The position numbers and the translations under genes were made by a program. The notes under the pieces are model-generated. The model was not told the DNA's origin and did no database searches. It saw only the letters and a program-made list of their open reading frames with translations. DNA of 59,813 nt, the filler included, from Jimgerdemannia flammicorona (Eukaryota): the NCBI GenBank assembly GCA_003990765.1. It is 3 parts of 3 records of this genome, joined end to end, with 100 filler letters (N's around TTAATTAATTAA, not from the genome) between each part and the next. Parts side by side here need not be neighbours in the genome. Positions count along the whole stretch, not along the records: positions 19,978 to 39,846 come from RBNJ01001820.1; 2 more parts are not named here. The stretch is one strand, 5' to 3'. Shown here in pieces: positions 6,776-53,034 of this stretch. The number at the start of each line of letters is the position of its first letter. Positions within the stretch are counted from its first letter, which is position 1.

Positions 6776-6812
<37 letters not shown>

Positions 6813-6817
6813 CTTTT

Positions 6818-6875
<58 letters not shown>

Positions 6876-18399: not shown

Positions 18400-19877
18400 A
18401 TGGTAGGTGGGGACATCATTGAAACAATTGTCCCTACAGGTGGTATCTGGGCATCTTTCTTTCTGTATATGGATCTGTCTTGCCATGAGTGTGGGGGGAG
18501 AGGAGGGTAGCCATTTGGGGGGAGGCCCTTCAAGGTTGGGGGGGGCGCTACATTTCTCTGGCAGGGTGGGTGTCAATTCTGAATGTCTACTAATTTCCCA
18601 AGCTATGGTATATGGCATATCACCTAGACTTCCCAGCTTGGGTGGTGAAGAGGTTGATGAAGATGGCTAGAGATTGGATTTGGGCTGGGAGGAGGTCCCA
18701 GATCAGTTGGGATACCCTTGCAACTCTGGTGGTTAGAGGAGGACTAAGCCTTGTGGATTTCCCTAAGAGGTTGCACTACCTGCAAGCTTGGTGGTTGAAG
18801 AGAGCTGTTGAATTGCAGGGAGGGGATTGGGTGCCACTGCTGTAGAGGGTGTGGGAGATGAGATTCTCCCCTCAAGGGTTCTTGGGAAATTTGCTCATGC
18901 TGGTGGGGCTGAATGGATGTCAATGGCTGTGGTTTAAGAGCTTCTGGTGGGGGGTGGTAGATGGAGTACACTGAATAGACCTGTGCTGGTGGGGCAATGA
19001 GGGAGAGGTGCCTTGGAGTCCGAATATATGGCAATGGGACAGATTGCTTCTGGGGGATACTCTGTTTGCTGAGTTTGACATTGGGGATGGAGTGGAGTAT
19101 CAGCAGAGTTTTGGCCAGAATCTTTGGCCAAGTGGATGGCAGGTGGCAAGGATTGGCGAGGAGTGGGACTGGGCAGGTGTCTGGTCATGGAGTGCTGAGG
19201 TGTGAAAGTGGCTTCCTCCCAACTTCTGAGTGATATAGTAGTGGATTCTGTGGAGGAACATCATGTTGAATTTCCATGCAGGGCATTTGGTGGATGGTGG
19301 CTGATTAGATTGTGAGGAGTATTATAATGTAGGGCAAGTTGGGGGATTTGTGCAGATACCAGAACATTGGCTGGGAGAGTGTGAGGTGCTGGGGACTTTT
19401 GGATAGAAGTAGGAAATCAGCTGGATGTAGAGCAGAGGCTGGATGATGAGCAAGGCCACTGGGAGGATTTGAAATCTCAGCTAGTGGGTGGTGTGGGTAA
19501 TAGTTGGCTCACTGTAGGGTGGGTTTTAGTGGTGTGGATAGGATTAGCTAGACATTGGCTCTTTGTCTTTGAGGAGGGGCAATAGTTGGGTTTACAGAAG
19601 AAGTTGTTGAGGTGAGAGAGATTGATGGAGGATCTGCTGTCTGGGTGGTGGGTGGATTGGGGTCCCCAGAGTGGGCGATGTTGTGGTCTGGTGGAAGGGA
19701 TCTGTGAACAGAGTAGTGGGCAGGTGGCAATGGTGTTAGACAAAGTAGTCTTTCATTGAGTGGTGGTGGGGGAGAGGGGTCCCCCTAGGGGGATTGGGTA
19801 AGAGGTGTGCTCAGTCTATTTGTATGAGATAGATTGGTGTATTAATAAAGAAAGGAGTCCAAGAGACTATAAAAAAA
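18400..19877 (+). mobile_element. 5'-truncated LINE (post-RT region and 3' end), related to the 1075-4634 copy
   Basis: YLGIF...ISLAGWVSILNVY*FPKLWY...WIWAG...GGLSLVDF. AATAAA at ~19844, then gactataaaaaaa at the contig end. Confidence 0.85.
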
Positions 19878-19977
19878 NNNNNNNNNNNNNNNNNNNNNNN
19901 NNNNNNNNNNNNNNNNNNNNNTTAATTAATTAANNNNNNNNNNNNNNNNNNNNNNNNNNNNNNNNNNNNNNNNNNNN
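19878..19977. other. Artificial contig linker (44 N + TTAATTAATTAA + 44 N)
   Basis: Identical in structure to 39847-39946. The 12-mer carries stop codons in all six frames. Confidence 0.97.
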
Positions 19978-22229: not shown

Positions 22230-22911
22230 GTAATGGCGTTGGCTTTTCTTTCAGTGTTGTTGCATCTGAGGAAATTGTCGCAATCCTTTCTTTTCATGCC
22301 CCCTATTTCGAGGGTCTTGTTCTTTGCTGTGCACAGACTGAATTCGCCTTGGAATTCAGGTTCAATGGGTTTACTTAAGTTTTTGGGGATTTATATACCA
22401 GTTTCAGTTCTGGCAGAAGATAGCTAGGCTTCTGGAGTTTAGTCAAAAATACTAGAGTCACTTAGATATCATTACTAAGACTTAAGGGAATGTGTGTGTG
22501 GAGAAGACTTGATTCTTGTATCAAGGACTGAACTAAAACTGCTTTATTTCCAATGGAAATTGGGGGGTATTTATACAAGTTGGTCCACGATTTCTGACTA
22601 AGTATGAGTGACTAATTTGGTAACTATAATGAGGTTTGTGATCGCGACCTTTGTCAGGTGGTTTTTGGTAAAAACAACTTTGTGATCAGGACCTCAATTA
22701 CTAGGCAATGATCAGCTACTGTGGCAACTGTTGCTGCGGCGCCGATTGTTGGGGATAAGCTGGATATCGTTTTCCGCGTCGTTTCGCATCGTTCGTCATT
22801 CATAATTCGTATGTCGCGCTTCGTTCGTATGATGACGTCATCGCCGCCGGATCACGTGATCGCTCGTCTCGTCGCGTTCCATCTGTTCGCTTGCTCGTTC
22901 ATTCTATTACA
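22230..22911 (-). mobile_element. LTR-like segment with a CpG-rich U3-like part, interrupting the Gypsy RNase H and lying just upstream of the CRN-like gene
   Basis: Begins TGTAATAG at 22911 immediately after RNase H AEINYAT. TATAAATACCCCCC at ~22575 and AATAAA at ~22549. The 3' boundary is uncertain and no TSD was found. Confidence 0.5.
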
Positions 22912-25900
22912 GTTGCATAGTTAATTTCGGCATCATTGAACTTGTGGGAATGATAGGCCACCAGGTGTCCTTCTTGCATGAGCATGGCTCCAAGGGCTAG
23001 GTCAGAAGCATCAGTAGTAACTTCATATGGCAGGGCAGGGTTTGCCACTTGAAGTACTGGGGTGATTATCAAGGCATCTTTCAGTGCTTGAAAGGCTGTA
23101 TCTTGTTCAGGTCCCCAATTTACAAGATTGTTGAAGTCTTTCTCTTGTTTCATGGTCCAGGGCTGTTCTCCTTTCTTGTTGTACTTGGTCATTTGGGTAA
23201 GGGCAGTAGTAATTTTAGCAAAGTTGGCAACAAATCATCTGTAATAGTTTACTAATTCCAGGAATGACTGTAGGTCCTTCAACTTCTTGGGTCTGGGCCA
23301 ATCCTTGATTGCAGAGATTTTTCTGGGGTCCACTTTGATTCCATTTGGGGTGACAATGTGTCCAAGGAATTGATTTGCAAAGAGTCGATTTTCTCAGAGT
23401 TTCAGTAGACTAGTTCAAGGTGTTTGAGATGTTTCTCCAGGGTTTTGCTGAAGACTAGGATGTCATCAATGTAGACAACAATAAATTTGTCTAGATATGG
23501 GTGTAGGATGGTATTCATCAGGGTCTGGAAGATTACTAGAGCATTAGTTAAGCCAAAAGGCATAACCAGGAATTTGAAGTATCCATAGCAGGTTCAAAAG
23601 ACTGTCTTGTAGATGTCTTCTTCTTTCATGACAATTTGCCAGTAACTATTTTGTAGGTCAAAAGAGCTCATAAATTGTGGATTGGTGAGCCTATCGAATA
23701 TTTCATCGATTCTGGGTAGTGGGCAATAGTTCTTGATGGTCTATTCATTGAGATCATGGTAATTAATGCATATTCACAAGTCTTCTCCTTTCTTTACAAT
23801 GAAGAGGACTGGTGCACCATAGGGTGATATACTAGGTCTGATAAATCTTTGTTCTAGAAGTTTATCAATTTCTTTCTTGAGTATATCAATTTCTCTCAAT
23901 GACATATGGTAGATTGACTTGAAGGCTGGCTTGGTATCTGGGATGGTCTTGATGGTATGGTCTACTGCTCATTTAGGAGGTGGGCCTTTTAGAAGTTTCT
24001 TTGGGAATATGTCTCTGAATTTCTGGAGTAGTGGTCTGACATAGCTGTCAACTTTGGAAAAGTCTTCTTCAGAGTTCTCAGGTTCTCCTTTGGATGGGCA
24101 GATGGAGATGGTGAAGAGAGGACATTTCTTGGCTAATTTTTTGAGTTATAGCTTGTTGATATGTATGATCTTTGGTCTAGGGTCACTAGAGTTGAGTGAG
24201 TCCTTTTTGCCTTGCAGCTTGAAGTTGTAGCATTCTTTCTTAATAGTCAGAGAATGGTTTATCCAATTGATCATAGGGTTCTCTTATTTCAACCATGGGG
24301 TTCCAAGAATGATCTTGTTGTCAGGAAGTAGTACAATTTGGAAGGTAACATGTACTCAGTAGTCACTAATTCGGAAGAGTAGATTGCAGACTTTCTTGCT
24401 AATAATATATGAGGTTCTATCAGCTATAGCAACTGCTTGAGTTTATTATACCAGAGAGGTGAAGACCTTGAGTCTATTGGCTGTTTCTTCATTGATGAAG
24501 TTGCCTGAGGCACTGCTGTCTATCATATTCTTGACAGGTGCTTGGTTGATAAAAGCTTGGAGTGTAAGTAGTTTGTCTGATATAATAGTGGTGATTTCAG
24601 TTATAGGAACTTTCCTTCTGTTGATTCTTCTTTGAGCCAATTCATTGACATAAGAGAAGCAATCATCAATCATTCAGGAAGAGTACATTTCAATGCCATG
24701 GGGGCATCGGCTGCTTGGTACATATCCATCTTCGATTTTCTTGTAGAATTGTTCTTCTTTATTTATAGTAGGTTGGGCTGGGGTCTTGTTTGATGAGCCA
24801 AATCCTTTGGATCCTCAGATGGTAGGTAGTAGTTCAGGGACTTCCTTAATTGTCAGAGTTGACTCAATTTTTTTAAATAGGATCTGGGCAATACAGAATC
24901 CAATGGAAATCTTGAAAAGTATCTAACTGTGGTTTCAGATAAGGACAATAATTTTGCCTGTGTAATCCTCATCAATGACTCCTCCTTCTACTGAGAGTCC
25001 TTTCAATACTAAGCTGCTACAACAGCATATGCTTCCAACATGTCCTTCTGGAATTTGGATGCTGATTCCTGTATAGACTTACTTGACTTCTTAGTTGGAG
25101 ACTGTAGCTTCTTCAGCTACATATAGGTTATATCCAGCTGCTTTTTGACTTCCTTTGGTTGGGGCCTTGGCAGTTTGTCTTAACTTGACAAAGTCTAGTA
25201 TTCTGGTGGTCAGGTTATTGAGATGGTACAGAGTAGTAACAGTTGCTCATATTGCTGTTTGGGGTTTTCAGTTGAGGTAGGTACTGGTCATGTGTCCTGT
25301 CTTTCGGTAGTAGAAGCATGCTCTACTTTTTCAAAGTTCATTCCTTTCTCCTTTGGTGAGTTTCTTGAAGGTACTTGGCTGAGTGAGTTTATGATTTCTG
25401 GGTGTCCATGAGATAGATGTGGAGAGAGCTCAAGATGCTTCATGCTTGGGTTCTTCTTTCTTGGTCCAAGTCTTTTCCTTGTTGTTGAATTGTCTTTGGG
25501 GCAGAATGGGTCCAGCTGTTAGGATTCACTTGACCATAGTCTTGATTCTTGTCAGGCACCATTATTGGTGATCACAACTAACTAGACAGCCTTGTTCTTG
25601 GATTTTCCTAGTAAGCCATTCAGGCAGGGCATCAAATAAATGGTCTGCTCTTGTACCATTTTGTGCTTCATCATTGGCAATATATCCTAGGCCAATAGTA
25701 TTCAGGAGTGACTCAAGTTTTGTATAGAAGGTTTCAAATTCTTCTTTGCCATATATATCAAATTTGAGGTTGTGGAGTTTTACTCGAGATTCGGCAATCA
25801 TGGTTTCACTGTGGTATTGAGCAATCATAAGTTGTTTGAGTCCAGGGGCTGCAGGATGGGCTCCATATCCTGGGATATTGTTTGCTACATTCTGAGCAAC

Positions 25901-27866
25901 TATTGCAGATCAGGGGTCCCATGTGAGGGATTTTTCAGGAAGGGTTCGCCACCATTCTTTAGTGGGTCCTTGGAAGAATGTAACAACTCAGTGAACATAG
26001 GCTGTAGTGGTAGCAAAGAGTTGTTTCAGAGTATGGTCTTGATTATTTGTCAGAAGACAGTTAGCAACTCACTCATTGGTCCATTGATTGGCTTTGAAGT
26101 TGGTGTCAACTACACTAATGAAACTTTGGACTTCTTGTGTAGTACCATTGAAGGTAGGTAGACTCAGATTTTTAGTAGGTTGGGTCTGTTCAGCTAAGGC
26201 AGTAATGGTTGCTGCCATTATGGCTACCTGGGCTGTGAGGTCTAGAATCTGTTGGTTTGCCATATTATTTACTGAAGGCAGTTAGACTACTGATAGTGAT
26301 GTTACTAGTACTACTTGAGATACTAGTACAAAGTGTGATGGGGTTCTTTGAGTCTGTGTAAGTTGTTGGAGTAGTAGTTGTGGGTCTGGAGTGAGGGCTT
26401 GATAGATAGCTGTCTATTGCTATATAGGTGTATTCTGTCCTAATGGAGGTATGTCTCCTTCGATAGTATATCTGAGATTGAATTCACTGAGATACTCCTC
26501 CTCTTCTTCAGTTTGGTCCCCATATAATTGGATTTGCTCGGCATCAAAGTAGATAGAATCAGTTGTATATCTGATTTCGGATGGACTTAGTTCAAAATCA
26601 AGTTCTGGTTTGATATTGGTTTCAGGTTCAGGTAGGGCTATAGCTGGGCCTGCTTCTGGTTCAGGGTCAGGTTATTGATGAAGGGTTTCTCTTGCTTCTT
26701 CCTTAAGGATATGGTGGGCCTTGCTGTTCTGGAATCAGTAGTATAACATGGTCTTGCTCCTGGTATGGTGAAAGTCAGTAGAGTTAAGCCACTTAGCTAC
26801 AGAGGCTTGGGCTTCATGAGGAACTAAGGCTAGAAAGACTGCTGCTGGTTGTCCTAGGTTGCTTAGATTTGTGGAGCTGACAAAACTCTTATTGAGAAGA
26901 GTAAAGAAGGCTTCAATAAGACCTTTTTCATCCTGACTTGCTGGATGTAGTGCAAGGAGTTTAGTGAATAGGGTTTTGTCTATTTGCTGGTTTAATCAGA
27001 GTACTTCTTTCTTTAAATGAAGTTTGTCACACTTGTTGCAGATGTGAAGGTCAAATTGTCCTTATATGTCAGGTTCAATTCTCTCCAGATTATCAGATGG
27101 TTCAGAATAAATTCCAGTTCAGAGGTTGGGCTTTATACCAACTTGTAGGAATTCTCAGAGGGGTTTTGTAGTAGGGTGAGGAAGTATCTTAAAGTGGAAT
27201 TGGATTGTAAACTGCTGCTACTAAGTTGTAAGAGAGTTGCTTTTTTGAAGTAACTATTATGTAGTTCTGGAAGGATTTTCTGGAAGTTCTAGATATTCTG
27301 AAAGACTATTTTCTTATGGTCAAGATCAATTTCATATAGAGTACATCCTCTATGCTTATTGATTTCAAGATCAGGTTGATGTCTCAACTAAAGTCCTTTT
27401 TCAGACTAGTTTTAGATATTTAGGATTTTCTGTATTTCAGAAAGTTTGAGAAACTAAGACTAGCTTAGTTGAATTGGCATATCACTGCAGACAATACCCA
27501 ATTAGGAAATTTCATAATAGTGTTAGGAGTGAGACCTAACAGGGAGCAGATTTACTTAAGAGTGGTTTGTAGGTTATTAAATAGGTTTATTTGCTATTTA
27601 TGATATTGCTATACTAGGAGTAGTTGTATGAAGGGATATTGTGGGGAAGTATTCAGGAATATTCTTATATGTTTGAGTCTGAGATTCTGAGGTCTGAGGG
27701 AGGGGGTATTTATACTAGTAAGGGGCTATCTAGACTATGCTAGATATGGATGTAGCACTAAGTGCCTTGCTGAGTCAGAATATAGTTATATAGTATAAGA
27801 CTAATCTAACTATACTATGACTGCTAAGCTATCTATAGGTTTAGGCACTATCTGGGTAATTCTTAA
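22912..27866 (-). mobile_element. Ty3/Gypsy relic: LTR end, long pre-gag ORF, gag, dUTPase, protease, RT and partial RNase H (integrase absent)
   Basis: gag MANQQILDL...LPTFNG (26263); knuckle ACFYYRKTGH (~25300); protease MIDSSASGNFI (~24510); [31 protein letters not shown] (~23460); RNase H VTTDASDLALGAML. LTR TATAAATACCCCC at ~27714. Confidence 0.92.
24790..25198 (-). pseudogene. Retroelement-encoded trimeric-type dUTPase domain between gag and protease
   Basis: All five motifs are recognisable: KAAGYNLY, CSSLV, GGVIDEDYTGKI, FCIAQI and TI*GSKGFGSS. Confidence 0.92.
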
Positions 27867-28555
27867 TAGTGCTCTCAATGAATTGAATCGAGTTGAATTT
27901 GACCTCAATTCAATTCGATTCGAAATATTCAAGGGCCAATTCAATTCAATTGAATCGAATCAAAGGTCCAATTTGATTCGAAGTTTGATTTGAACCTTAA
28001 TTTTTCAATATTCAACAACTCAACGAAAACATGTCCAAAATTAATGAATTTTAGCTTGTTGGATTTGCCTTATTTAGGCGAATCCAACACAATAAAGAAT
28101 AACAAATTTGGATATGTTTTCGTCAAGTTATTGCATTTTGAAGTTTAGGTAGTACTCCAATGAATCGAAATTCGATTCAAATCGAATCAATTTGATTCGA
28201 ATGAATCAAATCAAATCAATTTGATTCAAACTCGAACGGATCGAATCAAATCAATTCGATTTGAATCTAAATATAATAGTAATTCACACACATGGTTTAA
28301 TATACAACAACACTCTCTCAAAGTAATCAAGCATGTCCAATACACTTTTGATATCACTATCTATGGAGGATACTATGATAATAGCTTCAGTGTTAGATGC
28401 AAGTATAGCTACAACAAGTGTAGTCTCATCACAGATCTCATCATGGTCTGAGAAAGGAAAAGAATGCTCTGACATTTAGAAGGAGTTCACAAAGGAGCAT
28501 ATGGAAAATGGAGATGTTTGAATCAAATATAACTACCCTCCACTATATTACCGGT

Positions 28556-29302
28556 CACAACATGGGCAACACGGGCAACACGGGCAACACGGGCAACACG
28601 GGCAAGACAGGCAAGACGGGCAAGACAGCAAGATGGGCAACATGGGCAAGATGGACAGATGGCAAGACAGGCGACATAGGCAAAATGGGCAAAATGGGCA
28701 ACACAGGCAACACGGGCAATACAGACAACACAGGCAATATGGGCAATATGGGCAACATGGGCAACATGGGTAACACAGGCAACACGGGTGGGCAAGACAG
28801 GCAAGATGGGTAAGACAGCAAGATGACAAGATGAGTGACATGGACAAGACGGGTAAGATGGGCAAGATGGGCAAGACAGGTAAGACAGGCAAGATGGGCA
28901 AGATGGGCAAGATGGCAAGATGGCAAGATGGGCAACATGGGCAAGATAGGTAGCAGCAAGACAGGCAATACATATGGGCAAGATGGGCAAAATAGGCAAA
29001 ACAGGCAAAATGGACAAAATGGGCAAAATGGGCAAAATGGGTAACACAGGCAATATGAGCAACATGGGCAGGCAATACAGGCAACACGGGCAATATGGGC
29101 AGGTAACACAGGCAACATGGGCAACACGGGCAGGCAACAAGGGCAACATGGGCAACACAGGCAACACAGGCAGGCAACACAGGCAACACAGGCAATATGG
29201 GCAACATGGGCAGGCAAGACGGGCAAGATGGGCAAGATGGCAAGATGGGCAACATGGGTAAGATGGGCAGACAGTAAGACAGGCGACATGGGTAAGACAG
29301 GG
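28556..29302 (+). repeat. ~9-bp minisatellite (GGGCAACAC / GGGCAAGAT variants) inside the transposase BED region
   Basis: Directly visible tandem array of about 750 bp. Confidence 0.95.
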
Positions 29303-29452
29303 ATCAAATGTAACTACTGTAGAGCATCATATAAAGCTATTGGTAGTTCAATAATAAATTTGTGGGCACATTTTAATAAGTATCATAAGAGTCATCAAGG
29401 AGGAGGAGGGATAGAGTTATTTTTTTTGCAAGTATGTTTTTTATATAACTTG

Positions 29453-29509
<57 letters not shown>

Positions 29510-30086
29510 TTATTGTTATTAATTTATTATTATCTTACAATATTCAAAAATAGCCAAAATTCTCCATGCCATTATTTTGAGAAAAGCTTGTTTGCTAGAT
29601 TATTAGTAACAGTCAGTCTTTTATGGTTGTTGAGAATTTGAAGTTGAAAGATGTTTTTTCCCTTTTAAAACCAGACATTATTATGCCTTCTGCTGGAACT
29701 ATATGAAATGAAATTAAACTGGTCTTTCAACAGAAGCATGATACCATCAAAATTATGTTACAGATAAGATCTAATATTTTGACATTGAATATTAATTCAA
29801 ATATTCGAATTAATCTTATTGTATTCGAAAATAGAATATATAAGGTCAAATATTCTTCACTATTGATACATGGATATCTCCAAATATGCATGCATTTCTT
29901 GGAATTAATGCATACTGGATCTATCAGAATTGGCAACTCAACTATATACTGATTGATTTTGTTAAGCTATCAGGATCTCATTCAGGTAAAAATATCACTG
30001 ATGCCTTTGGAAGATGTGTTCAAGATTTTGACATACAGACAAAGGTATGTAGATCATATTTTGAAAAGGTCAAAAAAAAAAAAGTC

Positions 30087-30212
30087 AGGATAGTTGGGAT
30101 TTTCGAAAAGAGTGGAATTTTCAGGATTTTTCGAAAAAGAGCAGGATTTTTCAAAAAAGGGCAGGATTTTCAAAAAAGGTCAGAATTTTTGAAAAAGATC
30201 AGAATTTTAGAA
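30087..30212 (+). repeat. Short degenerate tandem repeat (ggatttttcgaaaaag-like) in a transposase intron
   Basis: Visible repeated units between the donor gtatgt (~30045) and acceptor (~30248). Confidence 0.7.
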
Positions 30213-31879
30213 AACTTATATTTCGAATTATTGATCTTTCACTCTAGATATTAGCTATAACAACAGACAATATATCTAACAACAACATGTTTTTTCAAGT
30301 AATTGGAATAGAGTTTGATACTGGCCTTTATCAGCCAATACAATATGTTCACTGTCTGGCTCATATTATTAATCTGGCTGCTTAGGCCTTTTTAATTTGT
30401 ATGAAGGCTGATGATGATAGGGAACTAATTTCAAAACTCCAGACAAGTATTATCAAGATTCAGTCATCACCACAATGTCTTGATCGATTTAAAGCACAAT
30501 ATAAAGCTTTTGGAATCAGCAATCCAAAAGAACTTATTCTGGATATTAAGACTTGGTGGAATTCGATGTATTTTATAATTGAATGGGCCTTAGAATTATC
30601 AGAGGTAAGTTTTATATTATATTATATTATATTATAATTTATATTATAATAATTTATTTATTAATAAATTAATTTTTATTAATAGCTCTTAACCACAACA
30701 ATTATGGCTGATAAAGATTTGCAAAAATATGCCATTAAAGATATTTGGCAGATGCTAAAAGATATTATAAAAATTCTAAAAAACTTTCAAAAGGTGACAG
30801 ATCTTGTAGCTAAGCAGAAATATACAACAATTTATATGGCTATTCCAATTTACAACTATCTGCTGAATAAGTTGGAGGATGATAAAGATATTCAAATGCC
30901 AAAGATGAGAGAGCCAACAGATGAGCCGACAGATGAGCCAACAGATATTATTCACCAGACAATAACAGCAGCTATTGATAAGTTGAAGATATATTATTCA
31001 ATGATAGATGGTCTTTATTATATTAGTACTAGTAAGTAAATATTTCAATAAATCTATTTTGAAATTTGCTTGGTACTAAGACAGTTTTGAAATTCGATCA
31101 GTTGGTCACTATGAATCTATTTTTTAGAATGAAAACCAGTTCTCAATCCCAGGATTAAACTAGAATATTATTCATCCCATGGTTGGGAAGATATTTGGAT
31201 TCAAGAGGCTGAAAACACACTTCATACAGTTTATAACAAAAACTATACCCCTCCATCTGGATCAGTTTATCACACAATTTCCAACATTGATGTCAATGTC
31301 AATATCGGCATTGATGTCAATGTTGATGTCAATGCTGTAATTGAAGAATGATAATGACATCCTTGCTGAACTAGATGAATATATATTCTATAGTGACAAA
31401 AGACAAAAACTGACAACAAATCCTGAGCAGGAGGTAGATGCTTATTTAAAAAGTAAAATTGTTAAATTTCAATCAGGAGTTGATATATTATCATGGTAGC
31501 AAGTGAGTTGGGCCTTCATATTTGAATTTGGTCTATATATTTCCAAAGTTTTTTTCTAATTAATTCAATTTATTGGAAACATTAGAGCCATAGCAGAGAT
31601 TTCCAAAATCTAGCAAAAATGGCATATGACTATTTAGCTATCCCAGTAACAAGTGCTCCAATTGAGCAGGTTTTTTCAAGTGGTACAGATCTTATAACAT
31701 CCAAAAGAGGCACTTTAGACTCTGAAACAATCTGTGAATATATGTGTTTAAAGGCATAGCAATCAGTCTAGTATTCTGATCTCGAAATATAGTATAATCT
31801 TGAAATATAGTTTCTCAAAATACCAAATATATATACATACCTGATCATTATATTGGAATTCTGAACAATGAAGTATCTA

Positions 31880-32320
31880 TATTTCAAGCTCTTAGCTTGC
31901 TTGTCTGCATCATATTAGTTCACTGCATTACCACCAAAGCTACTTGTTTGCACTATTGGCACCACTGAAGCTTCCTGGCATCACTACTTCGAAACTCTCC
32001 TGCTCTGTACCATATTGGCTCCATCAAAGCTACCTGTCTGCCAAAGCTTCCTGATGGCATTACTGCCTCAAAGCTCTCTATATTGCCTCACTGCATCACC
32101 ACTATATTTGAAGCTCTCAGCATTATAGCTATATTTGAAGTTCTTGGCTTGACTGTGTCACTACTATATTCAAAGCTCTCCATATTGGCTCATTGCATCA
32201 TCACCACTATATTCAAAGCTCTCAGCATTACACTGCTATATTCAAAGCTCTCGGTGTCATGCTTCGAAGCTCTCAGCATCACACTACTATATTCGAAGCT
32301 CTCAGCATCATGCCATATTT
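31880..32320 (+). repeat. Degenerate ~26-30-bp tandem repeat (cactatattcaaagctctcagcat) inside the hAT
   Basis: Repeated aagctctc-containing units. Confidence 0.75.
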
Positions 32321-32398
32321 GAATCTAAGCATCAGATAAAAAACATATAAATAGGCTGTCTAAGCTACACTTCTGTCTGCATTTTGAGCTAAAAAAAA

Positions 32399-32990
32399 AT
32401 GACCGATGAATTTCAAAATTACCTTCACCATTTATCTCTGCAAGTTTATCTTGAAGACTTCTCCAAGCACTTTGAGGAAATGAACAAGACCATCAGCAAA
32501 GTTTTCAAATGGCTAAATAATGACAATGATGACAAGACTGATGAAAACTACAAGAAAAACAAGAAGAAAATAGAGAAAGCACTTGAGAGATTTATCTCAG
32601 CCAGCTATACCCTTGCCAACCCTCAAGTCCAAGCCCCTGCTGGCCCTCAAGCCCAAGCCCCTGTTGGCCCTCAAGCCCAAGCCCCAGCCAGCCCTCAAGC
32701 CCTGGCCCCAGCCCCTCAAGCCCCAGCCCCAGCCTCTCAAGCTCTGGGCCCTCAAGCCCTGGCCCCTCAAGCTCCGGCCCCTCAAGCCCTGGTCCCTTAA
32801 GCCCCAGTCCCTCAAGCCCTGGCCCCAAAGCCAAGAAGAGGATGATATATTACAAGTTGCCATAATTGCAGAGTGTATGGTAAACATGTCATACCATTCC
32901 CAGGATTTGTCAACATCTTGATCCAACCATTCCCGATATTCCTCCAGACAAAAGACCATATGATAATATACATCGGATAGCAGCTGCTAT
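32399..32990 (+). pseudogene. Second ORF carried inside the hAT: charged N-terminus, Q/A/P repeat, SCHNCR motif; function unknown
   Basis: ORF 32399-32800 from the track. The repeat continues past a TAA into PRRG*YITSCHNCRV. Confidence 0.4.
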
Positions 32991-33448
32991 GGCCAGGCAT
33001 ACTGGGAATGCTTGAATTTGTATATCAGGTGATGGATCGCTGTCGGTGGTGATATATAGGAAGAAAATGGATGTAGCAACACTGGAGATGGTGGCAAGTG
33101 GTGGGGGGATGTGCTGGGATTGGCCAGGAATGCTGAATTGTGAATAAATTAGGATAGGAATTAGGATGCTTGAATGAATAGTGTGAAAATGAATTGTGCG
33201 GCAGATACCAGAAATACTGAATTGTGAAAATTGATTACAAATAAAAAGATTGATAATACAAGATTGATGATGTAAGATTCGAATTGAACCCTCAATTTGA
33301 TTTGATTGAATCAAATCAGACCCTCAATTCAATTCGATTTTGATTTGATTTGACTTTGATTTGAATCAAAAAATCCTCAATTTAATTCGACTCCAATCAA
33401 TCCCAATTCGATTTGATTCGAATTGATTTGATTCATTTGGGAGCACTA

Positions 33449-34822
33449 GTTCTTGATGATATCACCATCAATGATATTATCTCTGATGGAGTAGTTGTCT
33501 AAGAAAAGTGGTTTGCAGATTACTTCTCCTTGTTTGCTGAGGTAATAATACATATATTGGAACTTTGTCATCATCCCACAGGATTGCATTGTCTGTCTCA
33601 TATGCTGAATAAGGTATTGGTGGGTAAAGAAGGAGTGCATCATCTTTGCTTTCATCAGATTTGCTATCTACATATCTTCTATAGATTACAGTACTATGAG
33701 TCACAGGGTTATAGTAAGCTGGTGGCTGTGGTTCATGTTGTTCATACTCAGGTGGTGGAGTTGTTAGTTCAATATTGCAGGTTGTCTGAAGGTACAGGTT
33801 GTGTTCTCTGGTCTCTTCATTATAGTTGAAGTAATCAAGAGTAAATGCAGGTTAGTATTCATATCAGTGGTCATTGTCCCAATAAGTCTCGTATGTAGTT
33901 ATGAACTGTTGTAAGTTCATCAGCAGTATTGGTGGTATGATCAGGGTTGGCAGAGATCCTTGGCTTAAGATCATGTCAGCATCAGAGAGATCATTGTCTT
34001 CTGCTTCATCTTCATTGAACTGGATTATATTGTAGATATCCTTCATAGTATATCCAACTTGGGGCATTTGTAGGATGTGGTTATCAGGGTGCAGAAAGGT
34101 TCTGTCAGTAGTCTGAACATACTTGAGATACTTGTGGTTGAGTTCTTATATCATATCATCGATTTGGCCATAGGACAGGGTAGCAACCATTTTAGTGATA
34201 GTAACTCAGAGATAGGGAATAAAGGTGCTGTACTCATAAAAGAGTTCTTGGTATTTGCAGGCAATGAGTTTCTAGTATTGAGACATCTGGGTAATATCTG
34301 TATCATAGTGGTGTTTGACTATATCTTCTAGGAGGCAGCTGATCTGGTAGTAGCTTGAGATTTGTCTGATTTAGTGGGCCTCATTAAGCATGTTTAGGGT
34401 ATTCCATTGGGCTTCCATGAAGTAGAGGGGTGCTAGGCTATGGATATTCATAAGGGGCAGAGGGAGTGTGGTTTGATTGATAATAGTATTCCAAATATCA
34501 GTGTGGATGTGGTTGTAGATCTCAGTGGTCATGTTTGTGTATATTTAGAAGTTATAGTTATTGTTTGTTTTGGTTCTCTATTTCAATGTGTCTCAGTACT
34601 TGGTATATATGTATTTAGTCCTGATTGGTAAGATTCTGTTTATATAAATCTTGTATTCTGTGACTTTGTATTGACTCAGCTTTGTGTGCTGTGACTTCAG
34701 TTTGACTCAGCTTTGTGATCTTGCAGGTGATTTCCAGATTTGTTTGGAGGTCACAGGTGATTTCAGTGGCTTGTTCAGAGGGTGACATGTGATTTCAGTG
34801 GCTTGGAGGTTGTGTACTTACA
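33449..34822 (-). mobile_element. Distal (U3) part of the long 5' LTR of the 22912-27866 Gypsy, containing a ~365-codon decayed ORF starting at 34532
   Basis: TG terminus shared with 5122. ORF MTTEIYNHIHTDIWNTII...LFLDNYSIRDNIIDGDIIKN continues across the hAT to a stop at 27843-27841, upstream of the TATA box. Confidence 0.75.
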
Positions 34823-35195
34823 CTAATACTATAGTGCAAACAGGAATTATAACACAAGCTCCCAAAGGTACATATATCTGCCTTGCTGAGCAAAGCAGCC
34901 TAGCTAAAGAGTTCAATATTGGGCTAGGAGGAGGAGTAGTTGACCAAGAATTTACTGGTGAAATCTGTATCATCTTGTGAAATTTTGGAGACATATCATT
35001 TGAAGTCAAAGTAGGCCAAAGAATTGCCCAAGCAATCATTGAAGAAATCTGTCAAGATCTCACCATCAAAGAAGTCATCAAGCTCTCTCAGACAGACTAT
35101 AGCAAGAAAGAGTTTGGATCAACCAACAAACCTCCTAGTCAAAGGGTCACCACTATGAAGGAAGATGATGAAAACTGGTATAAGAGAATTACAAG
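34823..35195 (+). pseudogene. Gypsy dUTPase fragment, inverted relative of 39125-39510, truncated by the LTR at 34822
   Basis: QSSLAKEFNIGLGGGVVDQEFTGEI, GQRIAQ, TDYSKKEFGST and MKEDDENWYKRI. Confidence 0.9.
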
Positions 35196-35489
35196 TAACA
35201 ATATCTATCACACAGATGGACTTAGATTGGTTTTGATATTATCAGCTTTCCTAAGTTCTATATGAAGTATCTGTCATTATCCAGTAGAGATGATACAGAT
35301 GGTATGAAATGAAGTTGTTCAAATGTGTTTTGCTATACTATACTAGATTGTCCTTTACCTGAGTGTCTTTTTGTTAATTATAGTATTTCTTTTTTTGCAA
35401 TATTCAATATTATATATTTTTGGATAAAAAATATATAGTATCCTCCTGTTTGCTATATGCTCTAATTTTTAAAAGCTGCAGTTTCTTCC

Positions 35490-38400
35490 TCTGGTGGGGG
35501 GTGAGTGTTTCCATATAGTCCTGGAGGACTTTATATATATTCTCCAGAGCTTCTTCCTTTTCTCAGATAGTATTATAGATGGGATAATCTCTCCACTTGA
35601 TGAGGAAAAACCACTTAACTATTTTGGGATATTTGCAGATCTTGTAGTCAAGTACTTTCTCAATTTTGAATTTCTCATAATTATTGATCCTAATTGGAGA
35701 GTGGTGGTGGAACTATATACTCAGAGAATGAGTTCTCATAGTAGTCCACCAATTGACTTATATGGAATACTGAGTGTACTCAAATATTATTAGGAAGTTG
35801 CAACTTGTAGTTGACTTTGCTGACTTTTTGCACAATCTTGTATAGTCCAATTCTTCTAACACAGAGTTTCTTGGCTAGTTGTTATGCTAGAGTATCTGGG
35901 TGAAGGTAGTCTGTTCTAAGCATAACTATGTCACTAATATTGTAGAAGACTTCTCTTTACTTCAAGTTTGCATAATTGGTCTAGTAGTCCTGTGCTTCTA
36001 TGAGAGCATCTCTTATCATTTGGGTAAGATCAGAAATAGTCTCAGCCAGATCTTGGGCTACTGGGACTACTGATTTTGTAGTAGTACTCAGAGTCCTTGG
36101 GTGTTGACCATAGTTCAGAAAAAATAGAGTCTTCTTTGTAAAGGTTTTCTGGCTATTATTATAGGCAAACTCAGTATGAGCAAGATACTTGTCTTAATTA
36201 TTCTACTTGTAACAGCAAAAGATGCTAAGTATCTATTTGAGGGTCCTATTAATTTGCTCAGTTTGACCATCAGTCTGGGGGTAGTAGACAGTAGAGAACT
36301 TTAGCTTGATTCCATGGAGAGAGAAAAATATCTTCCAGAAATTGCTTATGAACTTAGTATCTCAGTCAGATACAATAGTACTAGACATATCATATAGCCT
36401 GAATACTTGGTTGAGAAAAATCTCAGCAATCTCTGGTACTATAGTAGTAGTCTTGGTGGGTGCAAAATGGGCTTGTTTGCTTAGGCAGTCTATAAATAAT
36501 ATAATGGCATCCTATCTTATCTTGGTCTTGGGGAGCTGAATAATAAAGTCTATTGCAATCTGATCTCAGTTATGACTCAGGATAGGCAGAGGTTATAGAA
36601 GTCCTGCTGGTACATAGCTTGTTACTACTTTTGAACCTTTGGCATATCTTGTATAAAGCCACAAAGTCTTTGATGTCCTTAGTCATCCTTGGCCAGTAGA
36701 ACTCTCTTAAGAGGAGATTGTAAGTCTCCTCAAAACCAAAGTGTTCTGCTGCAGGAGTATTATGGAGTTCCTGTATGATCTTGAGCTATAGAGTATCATT
36801 GTTGAGTACAACTACTCTATCATAGTCCCTATAGATAAGTTCATTATGGTAAGTGAATCTCTTGGACATTTGCCTCATTGATTCTGGGACCTTGGCCTCT
36901 GGGTCTTGGCAGGATTGAAGGAAATTCATTAGGGGGCTATCTTGTTGGTAGCCATTCTTGATCATCTGGTTAAGGTCTTCAATTACCTCGACCATAAAGA
37001 CAAGTTTGTCTTCCATATACCTAGAGAAACCATCAGCTACACAGTTAGTTTTTCCTGGGATATACTTAATTTCCATATCAAAGTTGATAATAATTTTCAT
37101 TCAGTGGGCTTGTCTGTGGATCAGTATAGGCTAGGTGTGAATATACTGTAGAGTATGGTAATCAGTATAGGCTATAAATAGTTGTCTTAGGAGGAAATAG
37201 CACCATTTCTGGAGTGCAATAAAAATGGCCAGGAGTTCCTTCTTATAGATAGTATACTAGGTCTCAGCTGGCTTGAGCTTTTGGGAAAGGTAGGCCACTG
37301 AGCAATCTTCTTGGCTGAGCACTGCCCCAATGGCAATGTCAGAGACATCTGTGGTCAGAGTAAATGGCCTAGTAGGGTCAGGTGCAATTAGTACTGGGGC
37401 CTCTGTAAGGAGTCTTTTGAGATAGTCCATAGCCTGGGTATATTTGGGGTTCATTTGGTCTTGATATTTACTCCTTTGTGGACCAGACTGGTCAGTAGAG
37501 CTGCAATAGTAGAGTATCCTTAGATAAATCTTCAGTAGTAACTAGCAATATTCAGAAAGTACTAGAGTAGCTTGAGGGTAGTGGAGATAGGAATATCCTT
37601 GAGGGCTAATATCTTTCAAAAGTCCATATTGATACCTTTAGCAGAGATAATATGTCCTAGATACTCAATCTGATCTTAATAGAACTTGTACTTACTCATC
37701 TTGGTATAAAGCTAGTGTTCTCACAGAAGGGTCAGTACCTGTCTGAGATAGGTGTGGTATAACTCTACTGTTTTGCTGTAGATTAGTATATTATCAATAT
37801 ATATAAGGATACAGATGTTGAGGAGTGGTCCAAAGATATCATTCATCAGATACTGGAATGTTGCTAGTGCATTGGTCAAACTAAAAGGCATATGTAGCTT
37901 AGAACTAGTAGTGTCTAAACTGTGTTTAGAAGGCTGTCTTTTCAATGTTCTTCTCATCAATGAGAATCTGATGGTAGCCATTTCACAAATCTAGTAGGGA
38001 AAAGGTCTTAGTCTTGAAGATTTGATGCAACAACTTATCAATCCTAGACGGGCATACTAGTTCTTGATAGTGATCTTGTTGAGAGCTCTATAGTTAATAC
38101 ATATTCACAGAGTGCCATCCTTCTTCTTAACAAATAGAATAGAGGCTCCAAATGAGGAGCAGCTGGGTTTAATATATTCTTGGGCCAGTAGTTTGGTCAA
38201 CTCATCCTTAAGAGTGTTGAGTTCAGATTGGGCTAGTTGATAGATACTCTTGTATCGGGGTTCAGATCCTGGAATGAGATCAATTCCATGTTAGATTTGG
38301 TACTTGGGTAGAAGTCCTTGAGGGTCTTGAAATACATCTTGGAATTCTTAAAATAGTTCTTGAGCTTCTATTAGAATTGGGCTACTTATAGCTTCAGTGA

Positions 38401-39846
38401 CTTCTTATATAGTATAGATGAAATAGGTATTTCCCTTTTTTCAAGAGAGTCTCTTCATTTGGATGGCAGAGATAATTTCGATTCCTTGATAGTTGGTACC
38501 TTTCTGGGGTATCAGGGTGATCTTTCTACCTTCATGGGTCAGATTAATCTTATTGGTCCTCCAGTGGATGTCTGGGTTATGCTGGGTCAACTAGGCTTTT
38601 CCTAGAATAATGTCTTGTCCTAGGAGATCTATAATACTGAAGTCTAACTTCTCTTGATATTTGCCAATCTTAAGCAAGAGATCTTTGCAGATCTTGGTCA
38701 GTGGTGCATGTTTTACTATCACCAAAGATAATACCCCTTTTCTCATTAGTTGGTCTGCTTTAGGCTCCAATCCTCTTAGCAGTCTTGGTACTGATATAGT
38801 TTCCAGTAGCACCACTATCAAGCAAGATACTGACATTCTGTCTGTAGACTTGGTCTGTGAACTTGATACAACTGTCCTTCTTCTTAATAGTATTGAGCTC
38901 TTCATCCTCATTATTGTCCCAATTGCTGTCAGTTTCCTTGAAGTCAGTTTCTCCCCATTCTTTATAAGGAGAGTGGTCTTGTTTAAATTTCTCAGTCTGT
39001 TGGATCTGGTTTCTTTCAAAGTTAATTTTGAAAACTTTAAAGAGACATGTATGGCATTCACCAATATGTTTCATGCAGTATATTCAGATAGAATGAGAGT
39101 ATCATCCACATGGTATATAACTATCTGCAATTCTCTTATACCAGTTTTCATCATCTTCTTTCATAGTTGTGATCTTTTGACTGAGAGGTTTATTGGTTGA
39201 TCTAAACTCTTTCTTGCCATAGTCTGTCTGGGAGAGCTTGGGGACTTCTTCAATAATGAGATCTTGATGGATTTCTTCAATAATTGCTTGAGCAATTCTT
39301 TGGCCTGTTTTGACTTCAAATGGGGTATCTCCAAAATTTTGCAAAATGACATGGATTTTGCCAGTAAATCCTTGGTCAACTACTTCTCCTTCTAGCTCAA
39401 TATTGAATTCTTTGGCTAGGCTGCTTCACTCAATAAGACAGATATATATATATATACCTTTGGGAGCTTATATTACAATCTCTGTTCACACTGTAGTATT
39501 GGTACTTAGTGGAATAGTGAGGTCTTAGCTACTGTAGAGGTCGTACCCAGCATCAGTAGGGTGGACCTTAGTGGGGATAATAGCCTTGTATCATATCTTC
39601 TGTACTTTAATGATATTCTCAGGGTTCTTCTTTTCTGGACCTTCTCCAATGACAGTAATGTTCTAGTTACTGAGTTTGCCTGATCTGTTTCTCTTCTCAG
39701 AGTATTTGAATGAGATGTATCCTGCCTTCCTGTAGATGAAGCATAATTCTTTTTCATAAAGCTACTTCTTTTTATCCTCAGTGAGAGGTCTTAGTTCTCT
39801 GGGGTTTTGTTGGTTTCTTTAATCATTTCTTTAGTCTTTTTTTTTT
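35490..39846 (-). mobile_element. Chromovirus-type Ty3/Gypsy relic: gag end, dUTPase, protease, RT, RNase H, integrase, chromodomain
   Basis: Knuckle CFIYRKAGY (~39740); protease [33 protein letters not shown]; RNase H TTDVSDIAIGAVL, YIPGKTNCVADGFSR; integrase STVYYPQTDGQTE (~36270); chromodomain FLIKWRDYP...I*EKEE (~35560). Confidence 0.92.
39200..39610 (-). pseudogene. dUTPase domain between gag knuckle and protease
   Basis: DAGYDLYS, SSLAKEF, VVDQGFTGKI, GQRIAQ and TDYGKKEFRST. Confidence 0.9.
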
Positions 39847-39946
39847 NNNNNNNNNNNNNNNNNNNNNNNNNNNNNNNNNNNNNNNNNNNNTTAATTAATT
39901 AANNNNNNNNNNNNNNNNNNNNNNNNNNNNNNNNNNNNNNNNNNNN
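39847..39946. other. Artificial contig linker (44 N + TTAATTAATTAA + 44 N)
   Basis: Same structure as 19878-19977. Confidence 0.97.
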
Positions 39947-42900
39947 GACGGCTTTGGGTACATTGAGGCAGGCCTTTCCGACTTGAATGGGGATGTCTCT
40001 GACAAGTCCAAGGGGTGTGGAAGCTGATCCATCAGCCATGATAACTCTTGCTTTGGTTCCTTCATCTATTCCCCATCCAATTCGCTCCAACATCCTTTGG
40101 GTGATGATGCATACTGCTGCTCCAGTATCAACGAGAATTCTGGCATTTTCACCATGCACTTTTCCATTGGTGAGTCTTGTAGATTGATGTTCATGTCGCT
40201 GGCTCTCATGGACTGTGTGGATAGTGCTGGGTTCTTGAGTGTGTGGTCCTTGGACTGGAAGTCTCTTGGTATCTTCCTTGGCTTCTTTCAGGAATTTTCG
40301 CCTGACCTCTGGTGCATTCTTGAGGACTTGCTCAACTATAAGACCAGCATTCTGTAGGTGGATATGTTTCCAAAGTGAGGCTGCTGTATGGGGCTTGCTG
40401 CTTCTTTGGTGTCTTGGTCCCTTGGGGTGTAGTCTCTCATTCCTGATGGGCATTTCATCAGCTGAAGATTCTATACTCATATGCTCATCTTCTTCAAGGT
40501 CTGGCAGGATAGAGCTGGGGGTTGTCCTAGATGGTCCGGCTTCTGGTTCAGGAGTATCTCTTCTAACTCGCTTCTCCTGTTCTTGTGGAGTGTCTGAAGA
40601 AGAATGGCCATGTTGTGGATGCTTGCCTGTGGATATTGTTACTGGCAGTTGAGGTGGGGGGTTCCTTCGTGGTCTTCCTTGTCCTCTGGTCTCTGCGGGG
40701 GTAGCTTCCCATGTCACCTTGGATGGAAAAGCCTCGAAGTATGGGTAGACATCATCTTCTTGACCATGGAGCCAGGCTGCTTCTTCTTCCATTTCCTGAG
40801 TCTCTTCATCTACCTGAAAGAGGTTGACATTTCTGTCATTGGACTGGGTGGATTGATTCCTTGGACAATTCCTCTAGATGTGGCCTTGATTTCTGCAGTT
40901 GAAGCAGGTGGGACCATAGGAACCAGTCGCTGATGAGACTATAGTTGCAGCTGGTAGTGCGGGAGCAGGACCTCTGTTGTCTTGTTGCTGGTAGTCTGGT
41001 CTATTATCATGACGGTAGTCTTGTTGTCTTCTACCTTGGTTCTTCAGCTGGGCAACCACAATGGCCAGGTCCTTCATTTGCTTGGTGAGTGTCGTCATGG
41101 GGTCTTCTTGAACTCTTGATGGTGGCTGCTGCTGTGGTTGCCTGAATGGAGTCGGATTTGTGGGTGCTGGTCTGTTCTCATACATAGTTGGCTATCTGGG
41201 CTCTGAGGAAGGCATTCTCTTGCTCTATAGTTGTTCCTTGGGTCCTTGGGGTTTCAGCTTGGATTGGCTCATAATAGCCTTGTACTTGTTGTACTGGTCT
41301 ATAATCTGCTTCCCAACATCCTTGTGCTCCAGCAACTTGCTGTTCAATGTTTCGATATCCCATTCTGATAACTTGCCTTCGGAGTTCTGGGTATAAGCCA
41401 TTGAGGAAGGTAGTTGAGGCTAGAGCCAGTTGGACTGCTGGTTGAAGGTTTGCCTTGATCATTTGAGCTTGAATCTGATGGTAGAAACTCTTGGGAGTTT
41501 CATTGGCAGCTTGGCTCATATAGGTCAAAGCCTCCTGTACTTCTTGTTGGCACTTGAATCCATTGAACTGAGCATGGAGCCAGGCTTTGTGAATCATGTA
41601 CCTTGCTACATGGTTTCTATCAGGTTGAAGGCCATCATTCAGTTCCTCTGCATGGATTTCACCTCCGGCTTGCTTGGCTTGATTATACCTCTGTAGGGCT
41701 AGTCCTCTCAGGAGTGACTCCACAATTCTGAGTTTTCTTACAGCATCCCATTGTTTGGCAGCTGCTTGAACTTCAATTTCTCCAAAGAATTCCTCAATAT
41801 CTTCATTATCTGCACCATGGAACTTCTGAAGGTAGCTCATGTCTGGCTTGTCTTCACTATCTGAGTATTGTTCAGGGGTAGGGGATCTGGCAGATCCTCG
41901 GGGTGATGGGGAAGGTGGTGGTGCTAGTACTTGATGATCTAGTGGTACTGGCAGAGGGCGGTGTCTTGGTGAGGGTGAGGGTAATCTGGCTCTTCTAATT
42001 AATGCTGGGGTTGAAGTCCTGGGTAGTGGTGGAGATCTTCTGATTGACTAGTGATAGTGGCGAGGTGTGAGTGACCAGGGTACTGAAGTTCGAGCAACTG
42101 ATGGTGGGAGTGGACTGATATAACTGATAGTGAGTTTGTCTGCCCCTTGCTGTTGTAAAGTAGTGAGGTCTTGTTCGCCTTGTTGTGGGTTTGTGTCACT
42201 GTCTAGATAATAGTATAGGTTGAATTCATCTCTTTGATGGTCTGATCCCCAATCGTCGTCTTGCTCTGGTTGATATGGATGGTAGTCCTCTTCTCCTTCT
42301 GATGTTTCAAAGTATACCTGGTCCAGTGGAGTGACTCAAGTAACAACAGTAGTTATGTAGTCACTTCTGTCTGAGTTCTTCCTATAGATAAGGGTCTGAT
42401 ACTCCTCAGAGATATCTTCTTCTTCTTCTTGGCCTAAGTCTTGGATCTGAAGGGGTAGTTCTGGTTGTCCTCTGAGTTGTCTCCTTTCTCTTGAAGTCAA
42501 GCCGTAATCTGGGTCACTTCTTTCTTCTGATTCAGTTTTCTGGCTACTGGTGTTAAATAGGGTCCTGGCTACTGTTCTGACAAGGGTGTGAGCTTTCTTT
42601 TCTGCTGAGGAGGGCTGTTGCTGCCCCTGGTTTAGTTGCTGACTTGGTCCTGCTAAGTTCTCCACTGTAGATAGCTGGGTTCTTGAGCCAAATGATCAAG
42701 TCTTTTGAAAACTTTCCCAGTTGAGCCCCCAAAATGTGGCATGCAGTTTGTATCTCTAGTTGCTTCAAGCATGGCTCAATGTGCCACTTGATGAAGTGCG
42801 CAGTATAAGACTGAGTGCATTTGCGATGGTTGCAGGTTGATGGTCACATGATCAGTTCATCCAATTCATACTGTGGAGGCTCAGGGCGAATTACTTCTTG

Positions 42901-43543
42901 AATGTACACAGTTCATGGTGCAGTAGGGGATCGTTCGGGTCAATGGTTCAGTCAAACATTCATTCTTAACTTGAGGGTGGGTTCTGGCAGTCGTTTGTTC
43001 ACTGGCGGTCTTGTTCTAGTATCCTTGGGTTCCTTGGCTGGGTTTCCGGGCCTTGAATCTCGAATGGTGGTCTGAATGGTGGTCTGAATGACAGCGGTCT
43101 TAAATGCACAGTCTTGAACCTCGAATGGCGGTTGGTTCTGAATGCACAACAGTCGGGTCGAATGCACAACAGTTGGCAGTTTTTTTTGTATGGCTTTCCT
43201 TTAGCAGCGAATCTTGAACATTTTCTGTGGCAAGAGAAAATTCTTTGACTCAAACCTTGAGTGATCGTTGCTCTAGTTATCTTGTTCTCAGAATTTATCC
43301 AGTCTCTTGGAGGCAGTGAGATTTCTCTGTAATCCTTTTTACTTTTAAATACAAACTGACTGAGGTTTATTCACTCTAAGATATAGGGTTATTTATACAA
43401 ATTTGCTAGCTAGGGGGGGCTAAGGTATACTACATTGTAGTGGTTTAATTGCTAAATATGGGTGTGACAATTGTTTGCACCGAATTGGGATAAGATGAGT
43501 GCTAGTGCTGGATATGGATGTTGTGGGTGGTATTACTGAAAAC

Positions 43544-43737
43544 GGATGTTGCTGACTTGCTGACAAACGTTGGCTGACCGGACTGAGGAAATGGACGTTG
43601 GATCACTGAATTGGAATAAGGCGAGTGCCAGTGCCAGGTTCAGTTGTTGGGGGTGATAGCACTAGAAATGGATGTTACTGACTTGCTGACAAATATTGGC
43701 TGACTGGACTGAGGAAACAGACATTGGATCACTGAAT
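43544..43737. repeat. Direct duplication (~126-bp period) within the putative LTR
   Basis: ggatgttgctgacttgctgacaaacgttggctgaccgga... (43544) versus ggatgttactgacttgctgacaaatattggctgactgga... (43670). Confidence 0.85.
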
Positions 43738-44106
43738 GGTAAAGTACCCTTCATCAGTGAACCAATCATCTTACTGGGTTGTGACTTCTTCATCCTGTTC
43801 TTCAAAGGGTGGGAGCACTGGCCAGGAGGTGAGGGGGTAGAATTGTGGCCAATCATCTTCGATGACATTCTCCAACCCTTGGACTGCTTGAAGGCAGACA
43901 GAGGATTAGTAGATTCTTTGTTCCTCCTCTTCTTCTTCCTCAGATCCTTCAGTTTCCATATTGGTAGAGACTTCTGGGACTTCTTGATTTGGTTCCCAAA
44001 CAATGAGGTGCGAATTGTAGCTGACAGAGTAGTGAGTAGTTGGGGTTGCTCCAACAGGTGTTGTAATGGTAATGGGTAGTTCTTCGAAGATTTCCATGAG
44101 ACTCAT
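43662..44106 (-). pseudogene. Accessory ORF B, acidic, upstream of the LTR TATA box; function unknown
   Basis: MSLMEIFEELPI...GSEEEEEEEQRIY* continues in frame through stops (ENVIEDDWPQFYP...EEQDEE). Confidence 0.4.
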
Positions 44107-44190
44107 TAGGTGACCTTGATAGTTGTCTCGGAGTGGAGTGGTGTGAAAGCCTGGTTGAGTGGGCTCAGTTTGTTGGCTTCCTACAGCAAC

Positions 44191-53030: not shown

Positions 53031-53034
53031 GAGA

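Follow-up and report, generated by a model that had tools for sequence, protein, structure and literature searches.

The subject of this analysis is a repeat unit with a decayed open reading frame (ORF) in a 59,813-nucleotide (nt) stretch of DNA, here called the window, from Jimgerdemannia flammicorona (GenBank assembly GCA_003990765.1). The window joins three contigs through runs of N at positions 19878–19977 and 39847–39946. The unit lies on the minus strand of contig 2, next to the remains of a dUTPase-bearing Ty3/gypsy retrotransposon (element A), and a second copy is found on contig 1. The original prediction described the unit as a protein-coding long terminal repeat (LTR). A past gene, the TG terminus and the position upstream of a primer-site-like motif have held up; the proposed LTR end and an open frame have not.

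The ORF-bearing unit and its boundaries

The 5′ terminus of the unit is TGTAAGTACACAACC at position 34822 on the minus strand. This 15-mer has two exact matches in the window, at 34822 (−) and 5122 (+), and thus stands at the start of both copies, in agreement with the predicted second copy at 5122–6503 with an identical terminus. In a self-comparison, 5140–6447 (+) aligned with 34772–33453 (−) at 72% identity, and a finer alignment showed that the homology between the copies begins exactly at TGTAAGTACACAACC. The upstream flank of copy 1 is an inverted 370-nt dUTPase fragment of a different Ty3/gypsy family (element C; 84% identity to 39126–39503), and that of copy 2 is a repeat, F, which extends to base 5121. 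Because the homology starts exactly at TGTAAGTACACAACC between unrelated flanks, the 5′ terminus is sharp; one contig of run X3 likewise diverges from the window at 34823. The first letters, TGTAAG (34822–34817), provide the TG with which the unit had been said to start. At the other end the homology stops at 27807 in copy 1 and at 6503 in copy 2, ~35 nt past a common stop codon, which gives a shared part (34822..27807) of ~1,426 nt. Copy 2 (5122–6503, +) is the more decayed of the two and is truncated at its 3′ side, running from the 5′ terminus to the ORF stop and these ~35 nt. It sits in one copy of repeat family F (53018–53992, 18637–19617 and 4700–5121; GC skew strongly positive), at the point equivalent to 53590.

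Copy 1 is interrupted by a hAT DNA transposon (27867–33448, +) that lies inside the ORF. The segment before the insertion (33449–34822, −) holds the 5′ terminus, then a non-coding leader of ~290 nt in which tandem repeats and a TATA-like motif occur, and the greater part of the decayed ORF. All features that define hAT membership are present: terminal inverted repeats that begin with TAGTGCTC, a dimerization domain (Pfam Dimer_Tnp_hAT, 3.9e-12) accompanied by a weak BED finger, and 8-bp target duplications at 33456–33449 (tcaagaac) and 27866–27859 (ttaagaat), the differences between which are transitions only. Subterminal repeats are also found. On the minus strand, the ORF reaches ...ATCATCAAGAAC at 33449 and picks up again past 27859. 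We placed contigs of a soil-metagenome run (X1) on the window at 80% likeness, so that they represent copies of the family, maybe from other organisms. One X1 contig connects 27858 with 33456, leaving seven letters between them, and thereby displays an empty site; three more pass from 27858 directly into the ORF end and are empty sites as well. Together with the inverted repeats, the duplication and the hAT domain, this bears out the prediction that removal of the hAT rejoins the unit. Within the hAT, an imperfect tandem array of ~740 nt (28557–29300) can be read without stops in several frames of either strand (ORFs of 200–267 codons); numerous X1 contigs contain it again, with 189-nt joints.

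The segment beyond the insertion (27227–27858, −) contains the last six codons and the stop of the ORF (27858–27841), a TATA box, TATAAATA (27714–27707), located 127 nt past that stop, the signal AATAAA (27591–27586), ~360 nt of further sequence and finally CTTACA (27232–27227). The latter is the exact inverse of the TGTAAG at the 5′ terminus, so that the two ends form a TG...CA inverted repeat. Directly after it come a 3-base spacer (ACT) and the primer-binding-site-like motif TAGTAGCAGCAG (27212–27226, −). The same junction occurs in element D, another Ty3/gypsy relic of the window: 17 of the 19 letters of the junction in element A match 45099–45117, where the two LTRs of element D (44862–45107 and 50879–51124; 86.6%) cease to be alike, and the 13-mer ACAACTTRGTAKC has exact matches only in element A (27217–27229) and in element D, where the LTR meets the primer site (45107–45119). 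None of 100 shuffles attained three matches of the junction 13-mer pattern. The third match (17620–17632), which has one mismatch and falls within the 5′ part of a long interspersed nuclear element (LINE), was taken as chance. The LTR of element D was also compared as a whole with the last 580 nt of the unit; no similarity was found (z ~0). We conclude that the LTR most likely ends at 27227, which would give it a length of 2,006 nt without the hAT and one copy of the target duplication. An LTR of ~1.7 kb ending near 27520, as first proposed, is without support, and one X1 contig runs across that position.

The downstream order of AATAAA, leader and gag agrees with the prediction, as does the presence of a dUTPase. 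The internal region of element A (22908–27211, −) begins with a long gag-like frame right after the primer-site-like motif, followed by dUTPase (~24791–25171), protease, reverse transcriptase and RNase H. Pfam matches establish its gag–pol character (dUTPase, 1.5e-27; RVT_1, 2.5e-19; RT_RNaseH_2, 3e-18; and protease families). The element breaks off within RNase H near 22908, and this truncation accounts for the missing integrase. Between the primer-site-like motif and the recognizable gag, a stretch of ~330 codons in the gag frame (26230–27190, −) has nine stops and no Pfam match; it may extend gag at the N-terminus or form another ORF. We examined the best 120 of 807 long pol relatives (E ≤ 1e-10, from 6,695 candidates). 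Nine of them are named, six from Chara braunii, two from Closterium and one from Malus, and none is fungal; the pol identity to the named relatives is 33–52%. The nearest named ones are charophyte algae, and a fungal host finds no support in this analysis.

The decayed ORF and its orphan product

The ORF comprises ~365 codons in two pieces, 34532–33449 and 27858–27841 (27841..34532, −). It starts with an ATG at 34532 and, once the hAT and one target duplication are removed, ends in ...YPDSA-stop at 27843–27841. Copy 2 ends in ...GDLIKEYPDIV-stop, which confirms the predicted stop at the equivalent place. Read straight from the ATG, the frame has 361 codons and 9 stops, whereas the two alternative frames have 19 and 38. 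The true path contains six in-frame stops (codons 54, 87, 109, 129, 223 and 227) and a frameshift near 33554: the last three stops of the straight reading follow this frameshift, and the shifted frame is open, ending in ...DGDIIKN and then, across the hAT site, YPDSA-stop. The predicted ORF, from the ATG at 34532 to the stop at 27841, is thus correct in its start and stop, but the six stops and the frameshift deprive it of its openness. The frame of copy 2 is more broken than that of copy 1.

Two intact metagenomic proteins match the frame. P0001 (247 amino acids; encoded on a contig of 998 nt), the single match among 215 near-length candidates from 5.8 billion proteins, is 59% identical from codon 115 to the C-terminus, which reads ...EYPDSI. 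P0002 (128 amino acids; contig of 1,180 nt), the single match among eight shorter candidates, is 76% identical over codons 1–128 and has the same Met-Thr-Thr-Glu start. Jointly they tile the whole frame, and at all six positions where the window copy has an in-frame stop they have sense codons. When a profile of the three sequences was searched against 1.84 billion representatives, it retrieved P0001 and P0002 only. The differences between the two window copies also carry a coding signature. Transversions affect 12 of 316, 15 of 317 and 29 of 318 sites at codon positions 1, 2 and 3, respectively, and 23 of 258 sites of the non-coding 5′ part (Fisher p = 0.005). For transitions, the minimum is at codon position 2 (p = 0.0004). 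C>T and G>A predominate in the substitution spectrum.

The stop counts of the three frames and the two independent intact homologs place the frame beyond chance, and because of the homologs and the codon-position bias we regard it as once a real gene. Judged from its sequence, the frame is a dead copy of a gene that was formerly under selection. Both copies have stops at codons 109 and 129, which might point to a shorter true ORF. This reading was rejected: P0002 reads through codon 109, and P0001 through codon 129. Some coincidence of stops is expected since the decay by transitions is heavy.

The product is an orphan without a family, a fold or a homolog besides P0001 and P0002. It has no Pfam match at E ≤ 1 and none in PHROGs, and matches to PDB sequences reach only E ~0.5; no homology to a known LTR-encoded protein was found in these three collections. 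The ESM Atlas model of P0001 has a predicted local distance difference test score (pLDDT) of 0.39 and no usable neighbor. AlphaFold gave a pLDDT of 29 for the C-terminal 247 amino acids and of 53 for the N-terminal 128, the latter all helical, and a Foldseek search against the PDB returned no match at E ≤ 0.001. The C-terminal part has an isoelectric point of 4.05 and is rich in Asp, Pro, Tyr, Glu, Thr and Gln.

Proposed assignment of the unit to the LTR of element A

We propose, with a probability of roughly 0.6, that 34822..27227 (−) is the 5′ LTR of the degraded dUTPase-bearing Ty3/gypsy element, and that this LTR carried an accessory gene of ~365 codons between its 5′ end and the TATA box and AATAAA. 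The ORF is placed between the start of the LTR and TATAAATA with the AATAAA signal. Lying upstream of the TATA box and AATAAA, it would occupy a position like that of the unique 3′ region (U3) of a retroviral LTR. A second TATA-like motif also lies upstream of the ORF: a 31-nt tandem repeat (34651–34717) is followed by TATATAAA (34646–34639), ~110 nt before the ATG. At the level of motifs, this segment (34639–34717, −) is a possible promoter of the ORF.

If the gene resided in U3, reverse transcription would put copies of it at both ends of each new insertion. Expression could then proceed from its own promoter at the 5′ end of the LTR, formed by the 31-nt repeats and TATATAAA, with use of the LTR poly(A) signal; alternatively, the gene could be read from the 3′ part of element transcripts, in the manner of the sag gene of mouse mammary tumor virus (MMTV). 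Its product would be helical in the N-terminal part, and the C-terminal part would be acidic and probably disordered. Our guess is that it served the element as a regulatory or adaptor protein. The termini, the primer-site-like junction, the former coding status and the downstream gag–pol are shown by the sequence; the U3 assignment, a presence in the 3′ LTR, expression and function are inferred. Both window copies are dead relics whose decay came about through transitions (C>T and G>A), and one of them was struck by the hAT. An extension of this proposal, which we hold only tentatively and think unlikely as it stands, is that the LTR was a self-contained cassette of enhancer-like 31-nt repeats, TATA box, orphan ORF and poly(A) signal, in which every 5′, 3′ or solo LTR was an independently expressible copy of the gene.

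Several observations weigh against the LTR assignment. None of the sequences found carries the ORF whole and intact. As element A is cut off at ~22908, neither a 3′ LTR nor a polypurine tract next to a TGTAAG start was seen, and the same holds for a target duplication. The motif TAGTAGCAGCAG is at most a putative initiator transfer RNA (tRNA) primer site; no tRNA gene is present in the window. Taken alone, the junction match between elements A and D has E = 0.46 in a search, and its weight comes from its position. That the ORF part is joined to the part with TATA box, repeat (R) and unique 5′ (U5) regions rests on copy 1 and on the few X1 contigs that cross 27858, by a length that their placement does not give. 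Copy 2 contains no counterpart of the last ~580 nt of the copy 1 LTR (observed 48, shuffle mean 58). Finally, X1 contigs have a summed depth of ~1,745–2,168 over 27281–27842; the ORF has 261–901, the sequence immediately upstream of 34822 has 142, and most of the hAT has a low depth. The ~2–3-fold higher depth over 27281–27842 than over the ORF could reflect short LTR variants that lack the ORF, though depth of this kind cannot rank the parts.

The last two of these observations would also be accommodated if the true LTR of element A were the last ~580 nt only (~27806..27227), and if the 1.4-kb ORF unit next to it in copy 1 were a separate repeat, be it an independent element or an LTR belonging to a different family. 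The 580-nt part is laid out like an ordinary short LTR, with a TATA box ~90 nt in and AATAAA after it, and copy 2 stops at 6503, the equivalent of 27807; the depth difference is a weak point in the same direction. We nevertheless consider this arrangement unlikely. The sequence past 27807 has neither a TG start nor an inverse of CTTACA, whereas the TGTAAG of the unit matches the latter exactly, and four X1 contigs (the empty-site joint and three at 27858) run from the last codons to 27858 and below. One outcome named as overturning the original prediction was an independent 1.4-kb element, delimited by termini and a target duplication that belong to it alone; the flanks speak against such a unit. 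Repeat F does not resume to the right of 6503 (observed 52, shuffle mean 54.7; left-flank control 400), and family C sequence does not resume past 27807 (46.5 versus 44.2; control 631). Since the interrupted flank resumes in neither of the two copies, the 1.4 kb that they have in common do not make up a complete insertion; nor is a target duplication visible around copy 2. To the right of copy 2 lie 272 nt of unrelated AT-rich DNA and then the poly(A) end of a LINE. This flank was considered as the tail of the element A LTR or as repeat F, and it matches neither. From the tests for the flank and for the LTR tail at 6503, copy 2 is therefore a truncated LTR.

An ORF just upstream of a segment that resembles a short LTR could also have been an ‘ORF3’ from the 3′ part of the internal region of a tandem upstream element that shared one short LTR with element A. 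Extra ORFs past pol are common in Ty3/gypsy elements. PMC5408684 describes many ORF3 types in dUTPase-bearing rotifer elements. This is quite improbable for the present unit: both copies start at the same nucleotide next to unrelated upstream flanks, neither has pol upstream, and the symmetry of TGTAAG and CTTACA would be left unaccounted for. We give still less credence to the idea that the frame was never a gene and is a chance feature of an A/C-rich LTR. It agrees with the broken state of both window copies and with the lack of a family, fold or other homolog, but it conflicts with the tiling by two intact predicted proteins from other sources (59–76% identity), with the codon-position bias in both transversions and transitions, with the 9, 19 and 38 stops per frame, and with a stop position that is kept in three sequences.

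Retrotransposon LTRs are normally regulatory only, and genes within LTRs are textbook knowledge for a few vertebrate retroviruses. MMTV sag encodes a superantigen and is located in the LTR of this betaretrovirus, within U3, and nef and bet overlap 3′ LTRs. The gene-bearing LTR proposed here resembles the MMTV arrangement in having a frame of a few hundred codons within the LTR and upstream of the TATA box, which would be duplicated at both ends of the element. It differs in that the sequences are not similar (no Pfam match at E ≤ 1) and in its carrier, a Ty3/gypsy element rather than a vertebrate retrovirus; the U3 placement here is deduced from motifs. dUTPase domains have been described in Ty3/gypsy elements of basidiomycetes (PosPlaTy3 of Postia placenta, and Phanerochaete) and of Tuber (PMC2864245), and bdelloid rotifer Ty3/gypsy families with a dUTPase and diverse internal ORF3s are described in PMC5408684. 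Element A shares with these elements gag, a pol with dUTPase and an extra ORF of unknown origin, and its dUTPase precedes the protease, as at the Pol N-terminus in PosPlaTy3-3 (PMC2864245). In contrast, the extra ORFs of those families are described as internal (ORF3 or ‘add. ORF’) and not within an LTR. The closest parallel in the window, element D, has the same LTR-end/primer-site-like junction (TTACA AC TTAGTA) and the same order of TATA box and AATAAA, but its LTR is 246 nt long and contains no ORF. A literature search, made by wording only and hence weak evidence, listed no paper on a Ty3/gypsy retrotransposon whose LTR codes for a protein; among the papers listed, those on MMTV were the only ones on an ORF in an LTR of this sort.

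If a conserved orphan gene did reside in a Ty3/gypsy LTR, such an arrangement would have arisen outside retroviruses too. The embedded gene would explain the unusual length of the LTR and offer a way into an unknown class of retroelement accessory proteins. In genome annotation, LTRs of this type would be mistaken for host genes, and solo LTRs for gene families. Should the more doubtful cassette proposal hold, the gene would persist even where recombination has removed the element, and a Ty3/gypsy lineage could spread, and adjust the dose of, a helper or host-manipulating protein.

Neighboring elements and the state of the window

The entire window is decayed repeat DNA. Its CpG observed/expected ratio is 0.25, and its longest open frame has 324 codons; in the region of the ORF-bearing unit, no open frame of at least 150 codons exists under the standard code. 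All repeats of the window show heavy C>T and G>A decay far beyond CpG sites, with a GC content of 0.24–0.30 in older copies. This pattern suggests methylation-linked mutation of repeats in the host, or mutation resembling repeat-induced point mutation. Most differences between X1 contigs and the window are A/T in the window where the contigs carry G/C.

Copies of the unit were also sought elsewhere. The soil-metagenome study is the only one listed as sharing words with the window (share 0.11), and no RNA dataset is listed. No copies were found among JGI metagenome contigs, prokaryote genome contigs or IMG/VR, apart from one relative that tblastn reported without a locus. A scan with degenerate motifs yielded eight loci, none of them related by tblastn or blastn.

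Element C (34823–39846, −), which adjoins the unit, is a second dUTPase-bearing Ty3/gypsy element with ~40% protein identity to element A. It includes reverse transcriptase, RNase H, an integrase zinc finger, SH3_Tf2-1 and a chromodomain-like end, and its pol end is immediately followed by a 370-nt copy, in inverted orientation, of the dUTPase region of its own family (34823–35193). Contig 3 starts with the relic of an LTR element (39947–44860, −) that has a gag zinc knuckle and a protease at the contig start and ~3 kb without annotation upstream of gag. Element D (44862–51124, +), inserted beside it, is a very AT-rich Ty3/gypsy relic with protease- and reverse transcriptase-like frames.

On contig 1, a LINE-like region (7072–18253, −) has an RVT_1 match (3e-15), endonuclease-like residues and an extreme GC skew of about −0.45 on the plus strand. 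Its parts follow an A–A′–B–B′ layout, with 11321–14770 being 81% like 14779–18253 and 7072–9209 being 81% like 9207–11327; the layout may be a true tandem duplication or an assembly artifact. The poly(A) end of the LINE is marked by a long T run at 6776–6909.

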